From the NCBI GenBank assembly GCA_035635635.1, contig DASQAS010000108.1, positions 42,843 through 106,842 on the forward strand: a DNA stretch of 64,000 bases, given 5' to 3'. The stretch is from Myxococcales bacterium (lineage in GTDB: Bacteria > Myxococcota > Myxococcia > Myxococcales > 40CM-4-68-19). Position numbers and translations under genes: made by a program. The notes beneath the pieces were generated by a model. The model ran no database searches. It had not been told where the DNA came from and saw only the letters and a list, made by a program, of their open reading frames with translations. Below are positions 8,082-64,000 of the stretch, piece by piece (the first letter of the stretch is position 1; every line of letters starts with the position of its first letter).

Positions 8082-9149
8082 ATGACCCTGAGGGTCGCGC
8101 TCGTATCCACACCCTTCGTGTCCGTTCCTCCCCGAGGGTACGGAGGGACCGAGTTGGTGGTCGGCGAGCTGGCCAAGGCGCTGGCGGCGCGCGGGATCGA
8201 CGTGGTGGTCTATGCGACGGGCGATTCGGATCTGCCCGGGATCGAGATCCGGTCGTATTTCCCCGCGGCGCAGTGGCCGCCGGATCGCGACATCGAGCGC
8301 GTGCACGCCACCTGGTCGCTGCGCGATGCGGCGCGGGACCCGCGCGGGTTCGACGTGATCCACGTCCACTCCCCCTGCGCGGTGGAGATGGCGCGGCTCT
8401 CGCCCTATCCGGTGATCTACACGCTGCACCACGACTTCGACGCCGAGCTCACCGACCTCTACCGGCGGGCGCCGCAGGTGAAGCTGGTCGCGATCAGCCG
8501 GTCGCAGGCCCGGCGGGAGCCGGCGCCGGTGGCCGCCGTGGTGCACCACGGTCTCGATCCGAGGCGGTTCGCTCCGATGGCGGAGCAGGGCTATCTGCTG
8601 TTCCTCGGCCGCTACGACCGGGTCAAGGGGGTCCGCCAGGCCATCGAGGTGGCCGTCCGGGCCGGGCTGCCGCTGGTGATGGCGGGCGCGCCCCACCAGC
8701 ACGAATACTTCGAGTACGACGTGAAGCCGCTGATCGAGCAGCACGGGGTGCTCGAGGTGGGTCCGGTCGGAGGCAGCCGCAAGGTGGCGCTGATCGCGAG
8801 GGCCCGGGCGCTGCTCTTTCCCATCGAGTGGGAAGAGCCGTTCGGGCTGGTGATGATCGAGGCCATGCTGAGCGGCGTTCCGGTCCTCGGGACTTCCCGG
8901 GGCGCGGTTCCCGAAGTGGTGGACGACGGCATCACGGGGGTCGTCTGCGACGACGCTACCGAGATGGTGGCCGCCGCCCGGATCGCGGACAAGCTCTTCG
9001 ACCGGAAGCGGATCCGGCAGCAGGCGATGGAGCGATGGTCGGCGGACCGGATGGCCGACGAGTACCTGGCGCTCTACCGGGCGGCGCAGGTGCAGCAGTT
9101 CGTGGCGGAGGAGGAAGAAGAAAAGCCGGACGCCGCCGCGGAGGCGTGA
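8082..9149 (+). CDS. GT4-family glycosyltransferase (glycogen-synthase-like)
   Basis: ATG at 8082 follows GGAGGAGGG. 'VALVSTPFVSVPPRGYGGTELVV' and the EX7E region 'EPFGLVMIEAMLSGVPVLG' match GT4. The track ORF start at 7761 is an artefactual extension. Confidence 0.85.
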   Translation: MTLRVALVSTPFVSVPPRGYGGTELVVGELAKALAARGIDVVVYATGDSDLPGIEIRSYFPAAQWPPDRDIERVHATWSLRDAARDPRGFDVIHVHSPCAVEMARLSPYPVIYTLHHDFDAELTDLYRRAPQVKLVAISRSQARREPAPVAAVVHHGLDPRRFAPMAEQGYLLFLGRYDRVKGVRQAIEVAVRAGLPLVMAGAPHQHEYFEYDVKPLIEQHGVLEVGPVGGSRKVALIARARALLFPIEWEEPFGLVMIEAMLSGVPVLGTSRGAVPEVVDDGITGVVCDDATEMVAAARIADKLFDRKRIRQQAMERWSADRMADEYLALYRAAQVQQFVAEEEEEKPDAAAEA

Positions 9150-59813: not shown

Positions 59814-60641
59814 ATGAGCACGGAAAAGAAGCTCGGGTTCATCGGCGCCGGCAACATTGGGGAAGCGCTTTTCAAGGGTCTGCTGAAGACCAAAGCCGCC
59901 CGCCCAGAGCAGATCTTCGTCAGCGCCCGCCGCCCCGAGCGCGTGCAGGAGCTGATCAAAGCCTACGGCGTCCGCGCCGGCAAGAACCCCGAGGTGGCCC
60001 GCGAGAGCGACGTGGTGGTGCTCTGCGTGAAGCCGCAGATCCTCGACCAGGTCCTCCGCGAGATCTCCCCCGATCTCTCCCGCGAGAAGCTGGTCATCAG
60101 CGTGGCGGCGGGCGTTCCCATCGCGGCCATCGAGCGCCGCCTGCACCCGCCCATGCGCATCGTCCGCGCCATGCCCAACACGCCGGCCACCGTGGGCGCC
60201 GGGGCCACGGCGCTCGCCCTGGGCGAGCACGCCACCGACGCCGACCTGGCCACCGCCAGGACCATCTTCGACAGCGTAGGCCTGAGCGTCGTCTTGGAAG
60301 AGTCGCAGCTCGACGCCGTCACCGGCCTGTCCGGCAGCGGTCCGGCGTACCTGTTCCTGATCATCGAGGCGCTGGCCGACGCGGGCGTGAAGGTCGGGCT
60401 CTCCCGGCGCGCCTCGCTGCAGCTCGCGGCCCAGACCGTCCTCGGCAGCGCGAAGCTGTTGATCGAGAGCGGCCAGCACCCGGGCATGCTCAAGGACGGG
60501 GTCACCAGCCCGGGCGGGACCGCCATTGCCGGCCTGCACACGCTGGAGGCCGGCGGGCTGCGCAACGTGCTGATGAACGCCGTCGAGGCCGCGACACGAC
60601 GGTCGCGCGAGCTGGGCGAGGAGTTCCTCCGCAAGCTATGA
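59814..60641 (+). CDS. proC: Pyrroline-5-carboxylate reductase
   Basis: 'LGFIGAGNIGEAL', 'VRAMPNTPA' and 'VTSPGGTAIAGL'. 275 aa. Confidence 0.95.
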   Translation: MSTEKKLGFIGAGNIGEALFKGLLKTKAARPEQIFVSARRPERVQELIKAYGVRAGKNPEVARESDVVVLCVKPQILDQVLREISPDLSREKLVISVAAGVPIAAIERRLHPPMRIVRAMPNTPATVGAGATALALGEHATDADLATARTIFDSVGLSVVLEESQLDAVTGLSGSGPAYLFLIIEALADAGVKVGLSRRASLQLAAQTVLGSAKLLIESGQHPGMLKDGVTSPGGTAIAGLHTLEAGGLRNVLMNAVEAATRRSRELGEEFLRKL

Positions 60642-60648
60642 GCGAGCC

Positions 60649-61026
60649 ATGGACCTTCCCGGCATGAAGCTCGCGCCCAAGGGCGCCTCGAAGCAGTCGC
60701 TGGATGCCATCCCCGGCCTGCCCGCGGACCTGCGCGCATTCCTCGAGCAGCACGACGGTGGCCGCGGCAAGGTGGGAAACCGCCCGCTGATCCTCTGGGG
60801 CGCGGAGCAGATCGCCAGCGAAGCGCAGTCGCTGGAGGTCTCGCTCTCCACGCCCGGCCTGCTGCTCTTCGGGACGGACGGCGGCGCGGAAGGATACGGG
60901 TACCTCTCGCGGCTGCGAGACCAGCGCTACGGCCGCATTCCGCTGATCGCCGCCGGAGCCCACGAGTTCGAGGCTCTGGGCGCCACGCTCAACGAGCTCT
61001 TGCAAGCCCTCCAGGAGGGCCGCTGA
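60649..61026 (+). CDS. SMI1/KNR4 (SUKH-1)-like protein
   Basis: '[15 protein letters not shown]', 'LILWGAEQI' and '[15 protein letters not shown]' fit the SMI1_KNR4 pattern. 125 aa. Its 3' end overlaps the convergent CoA-transferase by 38 nt. Confidence 0.5.
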
Positions 61027-63019
61027 CGGGGGCCACCCCGGCCTCGCCGATCTTCGCCAGGTATGTGCGCGCCTCGAGCGAGCTCTCGTAGATGTGCGGC
61101 GCGACGCCGCGCCCCGCCAGCGCCTCGCCCAGCTTGAGGCGGAGGAAGCCGTTGGTGGAGTACCGCGTCACGTGCGAGTAGCGCTCCTTCATCAGCGCGC
61201 CCACCATCGCGGTGTACGCGTCGATCAGCTCGGGGAGGATGCTGAAACCCTCGTAGTTGACGATGGCCGGCACCTTGCGCCCCAGGGGCGAGAGGAGCTG
61301 GTCGATTGTCGCGTAGACGCGATCGATCTGCCCGCGGCTGGTGATCGAGAGCCCGCTCAGGTTGACGAAGAAGAGATCCTGCTTCGGGTCGTAGACGAGG
61401 CGCTGCTCGAGCGGGACCTGGAGGATGTCGTCGCGCAGGCCCATCGGACCGGGCCGGAAGATGCGCGCGTCCATCGGCCGCGGGGTGCCGGAGACCAATG
61501 GCGTGAAGCTCATCTGGGCGAGGATGTGGTTCTGCAGATCGACGCCGGGCGCGATCTCGACCAACTCCAGACCCTCCGGCCGGAGGCGGAAGACGCACCG
61601 CTCGGTGACGTAGAGCACCGGCTTGTTCTTCCGCAGCGCCTGCTCGGCGCTGAACGTGAGGTGCTCCACCTTGTCCAGGAACTTCCGTTCCGTTCCCTCG
61701 CGAACGATGTGCAGCCGGCCGTCCTCGATCTTCACTTCCAGGCTGCAGGCGGTGAACGACCCCACGAACACGACCTTCTTCGCGTTCTGGCTGATGTTGA
61801 TGAACCCGCCCGCGCCGGCGAGCCGCGGGCCGAACTTGCTCACGTTCAGGTTGCCCTGCCGGTCGGCCTGGGCGAGCCCGAGGAACGCGACGTCCAGACC
61901 GCCGCCGTCGTAGAGGTCGAACTGGTAGGGCTGGTCGATCAGCGCGTCGAGGTTGGTCCCGGCCCCGAAGCTCAGCCCGCCGGCTGGCATCCCGCCGATC
62001 ACGCCGGGCTCGGTGGTCAGCGTCATTAGATCCAGGATGTGCTCCTCGTTCGCCACCGCCGCCACGCCCTCCGGCATGCCGATGCCCAGGTTCACCAGGC
62101 TGTTCGGCGTCAGCTCGAACGCCGCGCGGCGCGAGATGACCTTGCGCGCGCTCATCTCCATCGCCGGGATGCCCGCCATCTGCACCCGCAGCTCTCCGGA
62201 GAACGCCGGGTCGTAGCCGACCCCGAACGTTTGCTGGTGGTGCTCGGGGCGGTCCGCCATCACCACGCAGTCCACCAGCACGCCGGGGATCTTCACCTGG
62301 CGCGGATTCAGCCCGTGCCGGTCGGCGATCCTCTCCACCTGGACGATCACGATCCCGCCCGAGTTGTGGGCGGCGGTCGCGATCGAGAGGCCCTCCAAGG
62401 TCAGGGCTTCCTTCTCCATCGTGACGTTGCCATCCGGGTCGGCGGTGGTTCCGCGCAGGATGGCCACCTGGATGGGCAGCGCCTTGTAGAAGAGGTACTC
62501 GCGCCCGTGGATCTGCATCAGCTCGACGAACTCCTCGGTCGAGCGCTCGTTGAGCTTCCCACCGCCGTTGCGCGGGTCGACGAAGGTGCCCAGGCCGACG
62601 TGCGAGAGGTACCCGGGATTGCCGGCGGCGATCTCGCGATACAGGTGGCAGATGACGCCCTGCGGGAGGTTGTAGCCTTCGATCTTTCCCGCGTGCAGCA
62701 GCTTCTGGAGCTTGGGCGCGAGGCCCCAGTGGCCCCCGATGACCCGCTTGACCAATCCCTCGTGCGCGAAGTGATTGAGGCCGCGGTCCTTTCCGTCTCC
62801 CTGACCGGCCGCGTAGAGCAGGGTGAGATCGCGCGGGCCTCCGGTGGTGAGGAACCTCTGCTCCAGCGCGATCGCGATGCCCTCGGCGAAGCCGGTGCCG
62901 CAGAACCCGCCGGTGGCGACCGTGTCCCGGTCGCGGATCAGCCGGACCGCGTCGGCTGCGGAGACGACCTTGCCGGTGGCCGGACCATGCCCCTTGGAAA
63001 CTTGCGGATCGACGCGCAT
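60989..63019 (-). CDS. Acyl-CoA:acetate/3-ketoacid CoA-transferase (fused family-I type) with a C-terminal extension
   Basis: '[17 protein letters not shown]', 'GYNLPQGV' and a putative catalytic-Glu region '[15 protein letters not shown]'. An extra tail of about 150 aa has no assigned domain. Confidence 0.75.
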
Positions 63020-63113: not shown

Positions 63114-63662
63114 TCAACCGGCTGAACCGACCGCCTGAGCTTTCCGCAGTGCTTCCAGCAGCTTCCCGGGGCTTGGTTGATCTCCCGGCCCGAAGCCGAC
63201 GTACCGGTACGTCACTTTCCCCGATGGCGCTACCACGAGCGCGCCCCCCTGCTGCCAGGGATCCCCCGCCACCCGCCCTTGCCGGAATCCATGGAGGTTC
63301 GCCCGGACGAAGCGCGCGAGCGAAGCCGGATTGAACAGCGTCAGCACGACCGACCGCTTGAACCCGGCCAGGTCGTACGCTTTCCGGGAGGGATCGGTCA
63401 GCACCTGCACGCCGGGCGGGAACCCCACGTGCTCAGCCCAGGACTTCGCCGCCGCCGGCCAGCCGTTCCCCACGACCGCGAGCTTCCCGCCGCTCCGTTC
63501 GAACTCCTCCGCGTGCGGCCGCAACTCGGCCGCTTGCTCACGGCAGAGCGCTCACCCGTAATGTCGGACGAACACCAGGACCGCCGGCTTGTCCCGCCAG
63601 ACATCCCCGAGGCGCAGATCGCGCCCCTCGGTGTCCTTCACCACGGCGTCCGCAAGTTCCAC
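63114..63662 (-). CDS. Peroxiredoxin-like (AhpC/TSA_2, PRXL2/SelU-type) protein with an in-frame TGA at codon 37; candidate selenoprotein (alternatively a nonsense pseudogene)
   Basis: GTG at 63662 lies 4 nt after AGGAGAGG. The frame reads '...PAVLVFVRHYG[TGA]ALCREQAAEL...' and continues in frame into the track ORF 63114..63524. C-terminal 'GDPWQQGGALVVAPSGKVTYRYVGFGPGDQPS' is typical of the family. Total 182 codons. Confidence 0.6.
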
Positions 63663-63672
63663 GCCGCCTCTC

Positions 63673-64000
63673 CTAGAAATCGTCCGGCTGGAAGGCCTCG
63701 TGCCCGGCCCCGATGTCGTACGAGAGCATCTGCTCGTTCTCGACGATCTTCGCCTTCTTCCGCAGGACCTCGATCCACTTCGCGTAGAGCTCGCCCTGCT
63801 TCTGCCCGATCAAGCGGTCGCGCGCGGACTTCATCTCGTTGGCGTCCAGCTTGGACAAATCCGCCCGCTCGCGCGACTTCAGCTTGAACAGGTACCAGCT
63901 GTCGCCCTCCTCGATGGGCGCCTGCGGGACCGCTCCAACCTGGGTCTGCGCGAACACCGCCGCCGACAGCTTGGAGGCCTGCCCGATGCCCGGGACGTCG
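63673..64000 (-). CDS. C-terminal part of a probable PpiC/SurA-type peptidyl-prolyl isomerase/chaperone (partial, continues past the window end)
   Basis: The frame is open to the window edge. '...DSWYLFKLKSRERADLSKLDANEMKSARDRLIGQKQGELYAKWIEVLRKKAKIVENE' resembles the C-terminal helices of parvulin-type chaperones. Its TAG stop overlaps the RBS of the next gene. Confidence 0.35.
   Translation of the reverse strand, partial: DVPGIGQASKLSAAVFAQTQVGAVPQAPIEEGDSWYLFKLKSRERADLSKLDANEMKSARDRLIGQKQGELYAKWIEVLRKKAKIVENEQMLSYDIGAGHEAFQPDDF

Follow-up and report, generated by a model that had tools for sequence, protein, structure and literature searches.

Gene Organization and the In-Frame TGA

Near the end of the 64-kb window analyzed here (the whole GenBank stretch from Myxococcales bacterium contig DASQAS010000108.1; GC content 69.8%), the minus strand carries a reading frame for a peroxiredoxin-like protein that contains an in-frame TGA at the first position of its redox motif. 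This internal TGA is very probably decoded as selenocysteine (Sec), in which case the frame constitutes a genuine selenoprotein gene that has been wrongly split. The frame begins at a GTG at 63662, reads VELADAVVKDTEGRDLRLGDVWRDKPAVLVFVRHYG, meets the TGA at 63554..63552 and continues as ALCREQAAELRPH... to a stop at 63116..63114, and the TGA at 63554..63552 is its sole interruption. The principal features, the last of which resembles a bacterial selenocysteine insertion sequence (SECIS), are as follows.

63114..63662, minus strand: complete predicted selenoprotein gene of 182 codons, with a GTG start, Sec37, Cys40 and a TGA terminator at 63116..63114
63662..63660, minus strand: GTG start codon, placed by the start positions of homologues
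63554..63552, minus strand: in-frame TGA, the predicted Sec codon (U37), which opens the redox motif U-A-L-C
63545..63543, minus strand: TGC encoding Cys40, which is predicted to act as the resolving residue in UxxC
63533..63515, minus strand: core SECIS-like hairpin GCGGCCG-AGUUG-CGGCCGC, the same bases encoding A-A-E-L-R-P-H

Read through to 63116..63114, the joined frame comprises 182 sense-or-Sec codons, the length given in an initial annotation made from the sequence, which also placed the GTG, the internal TGA, the stop and a 136-aa open reading frame (ORF, 63114..63524) exactly where the minus strand has them. The 136-aa ORF is simply what remains of the gene from the next possible start after the TGA onward, a TTG at 63524. 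The residues surrounding the TGA read V-F-V-R-H-Y-G-[TGA]-A-L-C-R-E, and codon positions 1, 2 and 3 have GC contents of 0.83/0.33/0.81 before the TGA and 0.75/0.52/0.82 after it. A scan of all six frames for recoded TGA codons, requiring at least 30 open codons and a coding-type composition at the third and second codon positions on either side, returned 63554..63552 as the only passing TGA on both strands of the window. Two TGA codons would thus lie in frame in one mRNA, the predicted Sec codon and the terminator at 63116..63114; no hairpin was noted after the latter. Since the gene's own terminator is a TGA, the codon retains its role in termination and TGA has not undergone genome-wide reassignment.

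Conservation of the TGA Among Homologues

Homologues were read at the DNA level in 80 species-level loci, out of 249 relatives, and a protein search gave 135 homologue clusters, the best 120 of which are described here. The homologous codon is TGA in 73 of the 80 species loci and TGC or TGT in the remaining seven. The initial annotation had called for this comparison, naming uniform TGC in relatives with no conserved hairpin as the pattern that would argue against Sec, and the loci display the opposite. The motif R-H-F/Y-G-[U/C]-x-x-C is kept throughout the 80 loci, even where identity to the window protein falls to 38%, and its second Cys is present in every one of them. Sec forms occur in Myxococcota and in metagenome-assembled genomes (MAGs) labeled 'Deltaproteobacteria', two Anaeromyxobacter (L029, L063) among them, and also in Planctomycetota, Acidobacteriota, Binatia, SAR324, Gemmatimonadota and Eisenbacteria.

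Among the best 120 of the 135 clusters, approximately 112 are called at ∼130 aa, starting just past the TGA codon and thus covering only the C-terminal ∼70% of the protein, while eight span the full length (178-191 aa) and read FGCxxCR, the next residue being Glu in seven of them and Ala in P0104. A Cys occupies the U37 position in these eight database homologues, in the seven genomic loci and in human PRXL2B, and the F-G-C-x-x-C-R-E of the full-length proteins bears out the initial placement of the TGA at the first Cys of a redox motif.

Selection on the coding sequence was assessed as the ratio of nonsynonymous to synonymous divergence (pN/pS) between the window gene and eight relatives, over 34 codons on either side of the TGA. 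The ratio is 0.21-0.49 upstream, which indicates that the 34-codon upstream segment is translated and constrained, and 0.28-0.60 downstream. Together with the GC content of 0.81 and 0.82 at third codon positions, these values uphold the coding character that had been noted for both halves and weigh against an old pseudogene. Synonymous divergence alone (pS) is lower after the TGA (0.28-0.54 over 63452..63551) than before it (0.37-0.78 over 63555..63656), as RNA structure overlapping the codons would produce. Homologues begin 35-41 codons ahead of their TGA, and three of them (L011, L004, L008) have ATG (M-E-L-...) where the window has GTG. The locus is a single gene, with a conserved UGA aligned to Cys and purifying selection on either side.

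A recent nonsense mutation, in which the TGA would have inactivated a former CxxC gene and left a pseudogene, would require only a single TGC-to-TGA change and would be in keeping with the division of the gene into two ORFs by gene callers. It is nonetheless contradicted by the comparative data, namely the spread of the TGA over 73 of 80 species at identities as low as 38%, the purifying selection on both flanks, the conserved start codon and a co-varying hairpin, and was rejected as highly improbable. The probability of a single-base sequencing or assembly error is smaller still and practically negligible: the window's exact gene, with the same GGG-TGA-GCG, is found in five independent soil-metagenome assemblies from the Joint Genome Institute (JGI; L083-L087), which excludes such an error, and 73 other genomes carry the TGA as well.

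Public annotation treats the gene as two units or as a fragment. JGI annotates L083-L087 with a 36-aa ORF and a 136-aa 'AhpC/TSA' ORF, and NCBI-sourced records (P0044, P0067, P0068) describe 129-132-aa proteins named 'peroxiredoxin-like family protein' or 'AhpC/TSA family protein'. No Sec-annotated entry was noted among the best 120 of the 135 homologue clusters, the Sec forms there, like those of L083-L087, being annotated as shortened proteins. Taken at face value, the calls of the JGI and NCBI pipelines would favor two products, the first a 36-aa peptide that stops at the TGA and the second a 136-aa protein made by re-initiation at TTG 63524. The 136-aa part, however, is without the whole active site and the first β-strand of the fold, the Cys homologues are single proteins of 178-191 aa, and the shortened calls begin at differing, non-homologous starts (LCREQ..., VHCREQ..., MRPH..., MAELR...). 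Two separate genes were rejected on account of the active site that would be split off and of the single-protein Cys homologues, and a pair of products has a low probability.

A SECIS-Like Hairpin Downstream of the TGA

A hairpin begins 18 nt past the TGA, and in its minimum free energy (MFE) fold a 7-bp stem pairing 63533..63527 with 63521..63515 closes a 5-nt loop, AGUUG. The core hairpin has an MFE of -13.8 kcal/mol (z = -3.56), and 0 of 200 shuffled sequences fold as well. A hairpin at 63533..63515, 18 nt past the TGA, had been proposed in the initial annotation, and its position stands; the stem is 7 bp rather than 6 bp, and the loop that had been described as 7 nt long and G-initiated is in fact A-G-U-U-G, with G in second place followed by U. 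The published bacterial SECIS model, in the form cited by PMC13188914, specifies a stem of 4-16 bp that closes a loop of 3-9 nt, a UGA-loop distance of 16-37 nt, an MFE of -7.5 kcal/mol or lower and a G within the first two loop positions that is usually followed by G or U. The window hairpin falls within all of these published ranges (loop of 5 nt, stem of 7 bp, A-G-U at the loop start, UGA-loop distance of 25 nt, -13.8 kcal/mol).

The hairpin recurs among the homologues in two registers, described here in columns counted from the T of the TGA as column 1. At least seven consecutive base pairs closing at column 28 are present in 53 of 74 Sec-type sequences. In register A, which the window gene shares with 18 relatives, columns 22-28 pair with columns 34-40 around the loop AGUUG; in register B, found in 42 sequences, columns 22-28 pair with columns 33-39 around AGUU or AGGU. 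The stems vary by clade (GCGGCCG/CGGCCGC, GUGGCCG/CGGCCAC, GUCGCGC/GCGCGAC, GUGGUGC/GCACCAC and GUCACGC/GCGUGGC), and the loop G (column 30) and U (column 32) are invariant in the alignments of both registers. Standard pairs make up 97.3% of the cells in register B, compared with 84.3% after column shuffling and 16-63% after sliding of the partner strand; two-sided, compensatory changes affect five of the seven pairs (46 cells), and the covariation score is reached by none of 500 shuffles. Register A, that of the window clade, has 97.0% of cells paired, double changes in two of seven pairs and a covariation score reached by 3 of 500 shuffles. The hairpin is conserved and co-varying.

Its presence follows the identity of the codon, with a hairpin at the conserved position in 53/74 Sec forms and 1/7 Cys forms (Fisher p = 0.005) and a median local MFE of -12.3 kcal/mol in Sec forms compared with -7.3 kcal/mol in Cys forms (Mann-Whitney p = 0.001); covariation was what the proposed comparison of orthologues had been meant to look for, and six of the seven Cys forms are without the hairpin. 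A clade characterized by 'FCREQAARF' possesses an alternative hairpin, GCGAGCA-GGC-UGCUCGC, at columns 14-30 and therefore ∼8 nt nearer the UGA, and Sec forms with this alternative comprise L016, L019, L034, L035, L037, L042, L044, L071 and L073.

Two further structural observations concern the surroundings of the core hairpin and a Cys homologue.

63543..63509, minus strand: possible extended SECIS with a lower helix around the core hairpin, 63543..63539 pairing with 63513..63509; weakly supported

Across the clade, this lower helix is paired in 71.6% of cases and shows double changes in three pairs. In a Phycisphaeraceae MAG, the TGC form at L024 (3067..3114, plus strand) keeps a 7-bp hairpin, GUGGCGG-AGAUG-CUGCCGC, at -11.1 kcal/mol, and may represent a recent Sec-to-Cys conversion.

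Protein Family and Predicted Fold

Profile comparisons were made on the joined product with U written as C. The best Pfam match is PF13911 (AhpC/TSA_2), with an E-value of 3.1e-17 and 63.4 bits against a gathering threshold of 27, followed by weaker matches to AhpC-TSA (PF00578, 42 bits) and Redoxin. The NCBIfam model NF040769, 'SelL-related redox protein', is matched from position 6 to 172 of 173 at 124 bits, over a curated cut-off of 120. Among solved structures, the nearest in sequence is that of human PRXL2B, the prostamide/prostaglandin F synthase (9us9, E = 1.9e-12), in an alignment that spans residues 12-172 and crosses the TGA, placing FGCVVCR opposite YGUALCR. The assignment to the AhpC/TSA_2 (PRXL2/SelU-type) family in the initial annotation agrees with these matches, although NF040769 supplies a more precise name. 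Two motifs, G-F-R-Q-G and G-D-P-W-Q-Q-G-G, show little or no variation among homologues.

The fold was examined in a model of P0074, a full-length Cys form that shares 45% identity with the window protein (mean predicted local distance difference test score (pLDDT) 88.5; predicted template modeling score (pTM) 0.85). The model contains a strand at residues 32-36, Cys42, the equivalent of U37, and a helix at residues 43-54, such that this Cys caps helix α-1 at the canonical active-site position of the thioredoxin fold. Both the thioredoxin fold and a C/U-x-x-C motif at the N-terminus of helix α-1 are therefore found in the P0074 model. Foldseek searches with the model place PRXL2B first (template modeling (TM) scores 0.78/0.85), followed by PrxQ/BCP, AhpE and ResA, of which PrxQ and AhpE are secondary fold matches at 14-20% identity. 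A reading of the window protein's sequence, for which no signal-peptide predictor was run, finds no N-terminal hydrophobic segment, and this absence suggests that the protein is cytoplasmic. Taken as a whole, the gene most probably encodes a ∼20-kDa thioredoxin-fold redox protein of the AhpC/TSA_2 (PRXL2/SelU-type) group, with U37-A-L-C40 as its active-site motif.

Evidence For and Against Selenocysteine Decoding

Several observations weigh against the reading of this gene as one for a Sec-containing redox enzyme. The window protein is without the Thr/Ser-x-x-Cys signature of typical peroxiredoxins: in place of P-x-x-x-T/S-x-x-C, it has His rather than Thr or Ser at position -3. The wider 91-nt region is not unusually stable for its GC content (z = -0.25), and a search of the whole window against Rfam gave no match at gathering thresholds, with chance-level matches alone (E = 2-8.5) appearing around the site at permissive E-values. 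The covariation evidence comes mostly from the sister clade, whose register is shifted by one nucleotide. Register A varies little, and four of its seven pairs never change, which makes the window clade alone less telling. Of the 74 Sec forms, 21 have no hairpin at exactly the conserved position, and in most of these a different hairpin is found 8 nt further upstream; thirteen Sec forms are counted as without the hairpin, mostly from the 'FCREQAARF' clade.

Nor were selA, selB, selD or a tRNA-Sec gene found in the window or in the homologue loci scanned. ARAGORN reported no tRNA of any kind in the 64-kb window and no tRNA-Sec in 60 homologue loci, and tblastn searches that used the E. coli proteins SelA, SelB and SelD as queries gave no match at E ≤ 1e-5, either in the window or in the 80 loci (1.1 Mb). 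Since sel genes need not be linked to the selenoprotein genes that they serve, their absence from these regions carries no information and does not count as a negative result. Use of Sec is documented for Anaeromyxobacter, which has SelD and 11 selenoproteins (PMC1794560), and together with a second TGA-containing gene in one of the homologue loci (L020), this indirectly favors Sec competence in the lineages concerned.

The L020 gene, in an Acidobacteriota MAG, is itself a candidate selenoprotein gene (8254..8931, plus strand) with an in-frame TGA at 8593, and lies ∼1.2 kb upstream of the SelL-related gene. It encodes an apparently secreted AhpC/TSA protein (PF00578, 1e-30) with the motif FFRGSW-U-PYCR. 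Applied to 1.03 Mb of sequence flanking the homologues, the recoded-TGA scan gave 33 sites; ordinary gene ends with another gene coming next in frame account for nearly all of them, and only the L020 site at 8593 looks real.

Decoding of the UGA by other means, either by near-cognate read-through as Trp or Cys or under a reassigned code, would dispense with SelB and SECIS. Some bacteria read UGA as Trp or Gly, and such decoding would be compatible with the Sec machinery not having been found in the regions scanned. It is improbable given that the UGA position aligns with the catalytic Cys of CxxC and that the SECIS-type hairpin is conserved only in TGA forms. The gene itself terminates at TGA, for which reason a genome-wide reassigned code was rejected, and the lineages involved, high-GC Myxococcota and others, are not known for code 4 or 25.

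Proposed Mechanism

By analogy with known systems, we infer SelB dependence and selenium incorporation, as well as the nature of the substrate and the reductant. Following the paradigm of E. coli fdhF, SelB·GTP·Sec-tRNA(Sec) would bind the hairpin loop as the ribosome reaches UGA-37, and Sec would be inserted at codon 37 in place of termination. The hairpin would then be unwound and translated as A-A-E-L-R-P-H, and translation would end at the second TGA, which is presumed to be without such a hairpin.

In the protein, the U37 selenolate at the N-terminus of helix α-1 would attack an oxidized substrate, likeliest a peroxide or endoperoxide and possibly a disulfide. C40 would resolve the intermediate to form an intramolecular selenenyl-sulfide, from which a thioredoxin-type reductant would regenerate the enzyme. 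PRXL2B, the nearest relative to have been characterized, uses its CxxC motif and thioredoxin to reduce an endoperoxide, and on the strength of this chemistry a peroxide or endoperoxide reductase is preferred over a general disulfide reductase, an assignment by analogy whose chances are about even.

Genomic Context

The gene begins 10 nt past the TAG of a PpiD/SurA-like peptidyl-prolyl isomerase (PPIase) gene, and its upstream boundary contains two further features.

63674..63667, minus strand: Shine-Dalgarno-like AGGAGAGG, 4 nt before the GTG, with a putative function assigned from sequence
63673..64000, minus strand: 3' end of the PpiD/SurA-like peptidyl-prolyl isomerase gene, which continues beyond the window edge

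The AGGAGAGG element overlaps the TAG stop codon (63675..63673) of the PPIase gene, and this overlap makes it likely that the two genes are co-transcribed. A PPIase gene lies directly upstream in 13 related Myxococcota loci, and the orthologue in L011 contains SurA_N_3 and a PPIC rotamase domain. Directly downstream of the selenoprotein gene, 60989..63019 on the minus strand encodes a 676-aa CoA-transferase family protein (PF01144) and has no counterpart at that place in related loci. In L001 and L011, a homologue of 59963..60739 directly follows the selenoprotein gene, and 60989..63019 looks like a lineage-specific insertion.

Relationship to Known Selenoproteins

The gene belongs to an already known class, the bacterial UxxC peroxiredoxin (Prx)-like selenoproteins. 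Within that class its family is best described by NF040769, whose model it passes near full length at a score barely over the cut-off, and by its likeness to PRXL2/SelU, since PF13911 is its top Pfam family and PRXL2B its closest solved relative both by sequence and, through the P0074 model, by fold (9us9, 9usa). It differs from PRXL2B in that the Foldseek identity to the P0074 model is 25-29% and in that a prostaglandin-type substrate is not expected in a soil bacterium. In eukaryotes the SECIS lies in the 3' untranslated region (UTR), and this sets eukaryotic SelU apart from the window gene, whose predicted SECIS lies in the coding sequence just past the UGA. The exchange of Sec and Cys that was invoked in the initial annotation does occur in the SelU family (PMC3316567).

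SelL has been described as a Prx-like selenoprotein (PMC2398784), and the window protein resembles it in having a Prx-like thioredoxin fold and a predicted Sec as the opening residue of a redox motif with two intervening residues. The two differ at the second position of that motif, which is Cys in the window protein and in all 80 loci and would yield a selenenyl-sulfide rather than a diselenide. SelL proper, which occurs in fish, invertebrates and marine bacteria, bears a UxxU diselenide motif, and the window protein was not assigned to it because UxxC is found instead. Shchedrina et al. reportedly described, in 2007, bacterial SelL forms with an in-frame SECIS just downstream.

Small size, a thioredoxin fold, UxxC and an in-frame SECIS link the window gene to the Prx-like thiol:disulfide oxidoreductase selenoproteins (PF00578) of Geobacter, Syntrophus and Desulfotalea. 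These constitute another family, and membership of the classical PF00578 Prx-like family was rejected because the window protein scores higher on PF13911 and is only 26% identical to the PF00578 member in L020. The predicted hairpin is comparable to the SECIS of E. coli fdhF, also a stem-loop in the coding sequence just past the UGA, and has values within the consensus ranges; the likeness is one of predicted fold, with no sequence similarity and no match to an Rfam model.

Catalogues of bacterial thioredoxin-fold selenoproteins that combine UxxC with an in-frame SECIS date back to 2005-2008; examples are Prx-like 1/2/3, Trx-like and DsbA-like proteins (PMC2398784; PMC1794560). A table of prokaryotic selenoprotein families in a 2026 review lists neither NF040769 nor PF13911, its nearest entries being PF00578 (UxxC/UxxU), cd02970 (UxxS) and PF08534 (UxxC). 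It may be tentatively suggested, as a possibility that is doubtful at present, that the PF13911/NF040769 clade is a prokaryotic selenoprotein family that has yet to be catalogued, existing mainly in the Sec form (∼90% of 80 species), acting as the bacterial counterpart of SelU/PRXL2 with Sec at the same catalytic position, and undergoing SECIS turnover within the family.

Implications

The annotation of the locus should be corrected from a 36-aa and a 136-aa ORF to one 182-codon selenoprotein, with a transl_except qualifier for Sec at 63554..63552, and over 100 homologue clusters in public protein sets should be amended likewise. The gene joins the established bacterial UxxC thioredoxin-fold selenoproteins as a well-supported example whose SECIS variants co-vary, and it marks the uncultured, soil-derived, Myxococcota-like source organism as a probable selenium user. 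Should the PF13911/NF040769 clade prove to be a family of its own, its users would include soil Myxococcota and several other phyla. SECIS turnover within it would consist of two registers one nucleotide apart and a third clade's hairpin 8 nt further upstream, and the family would offer a natural test case for SECIS evolution under coding constraint.

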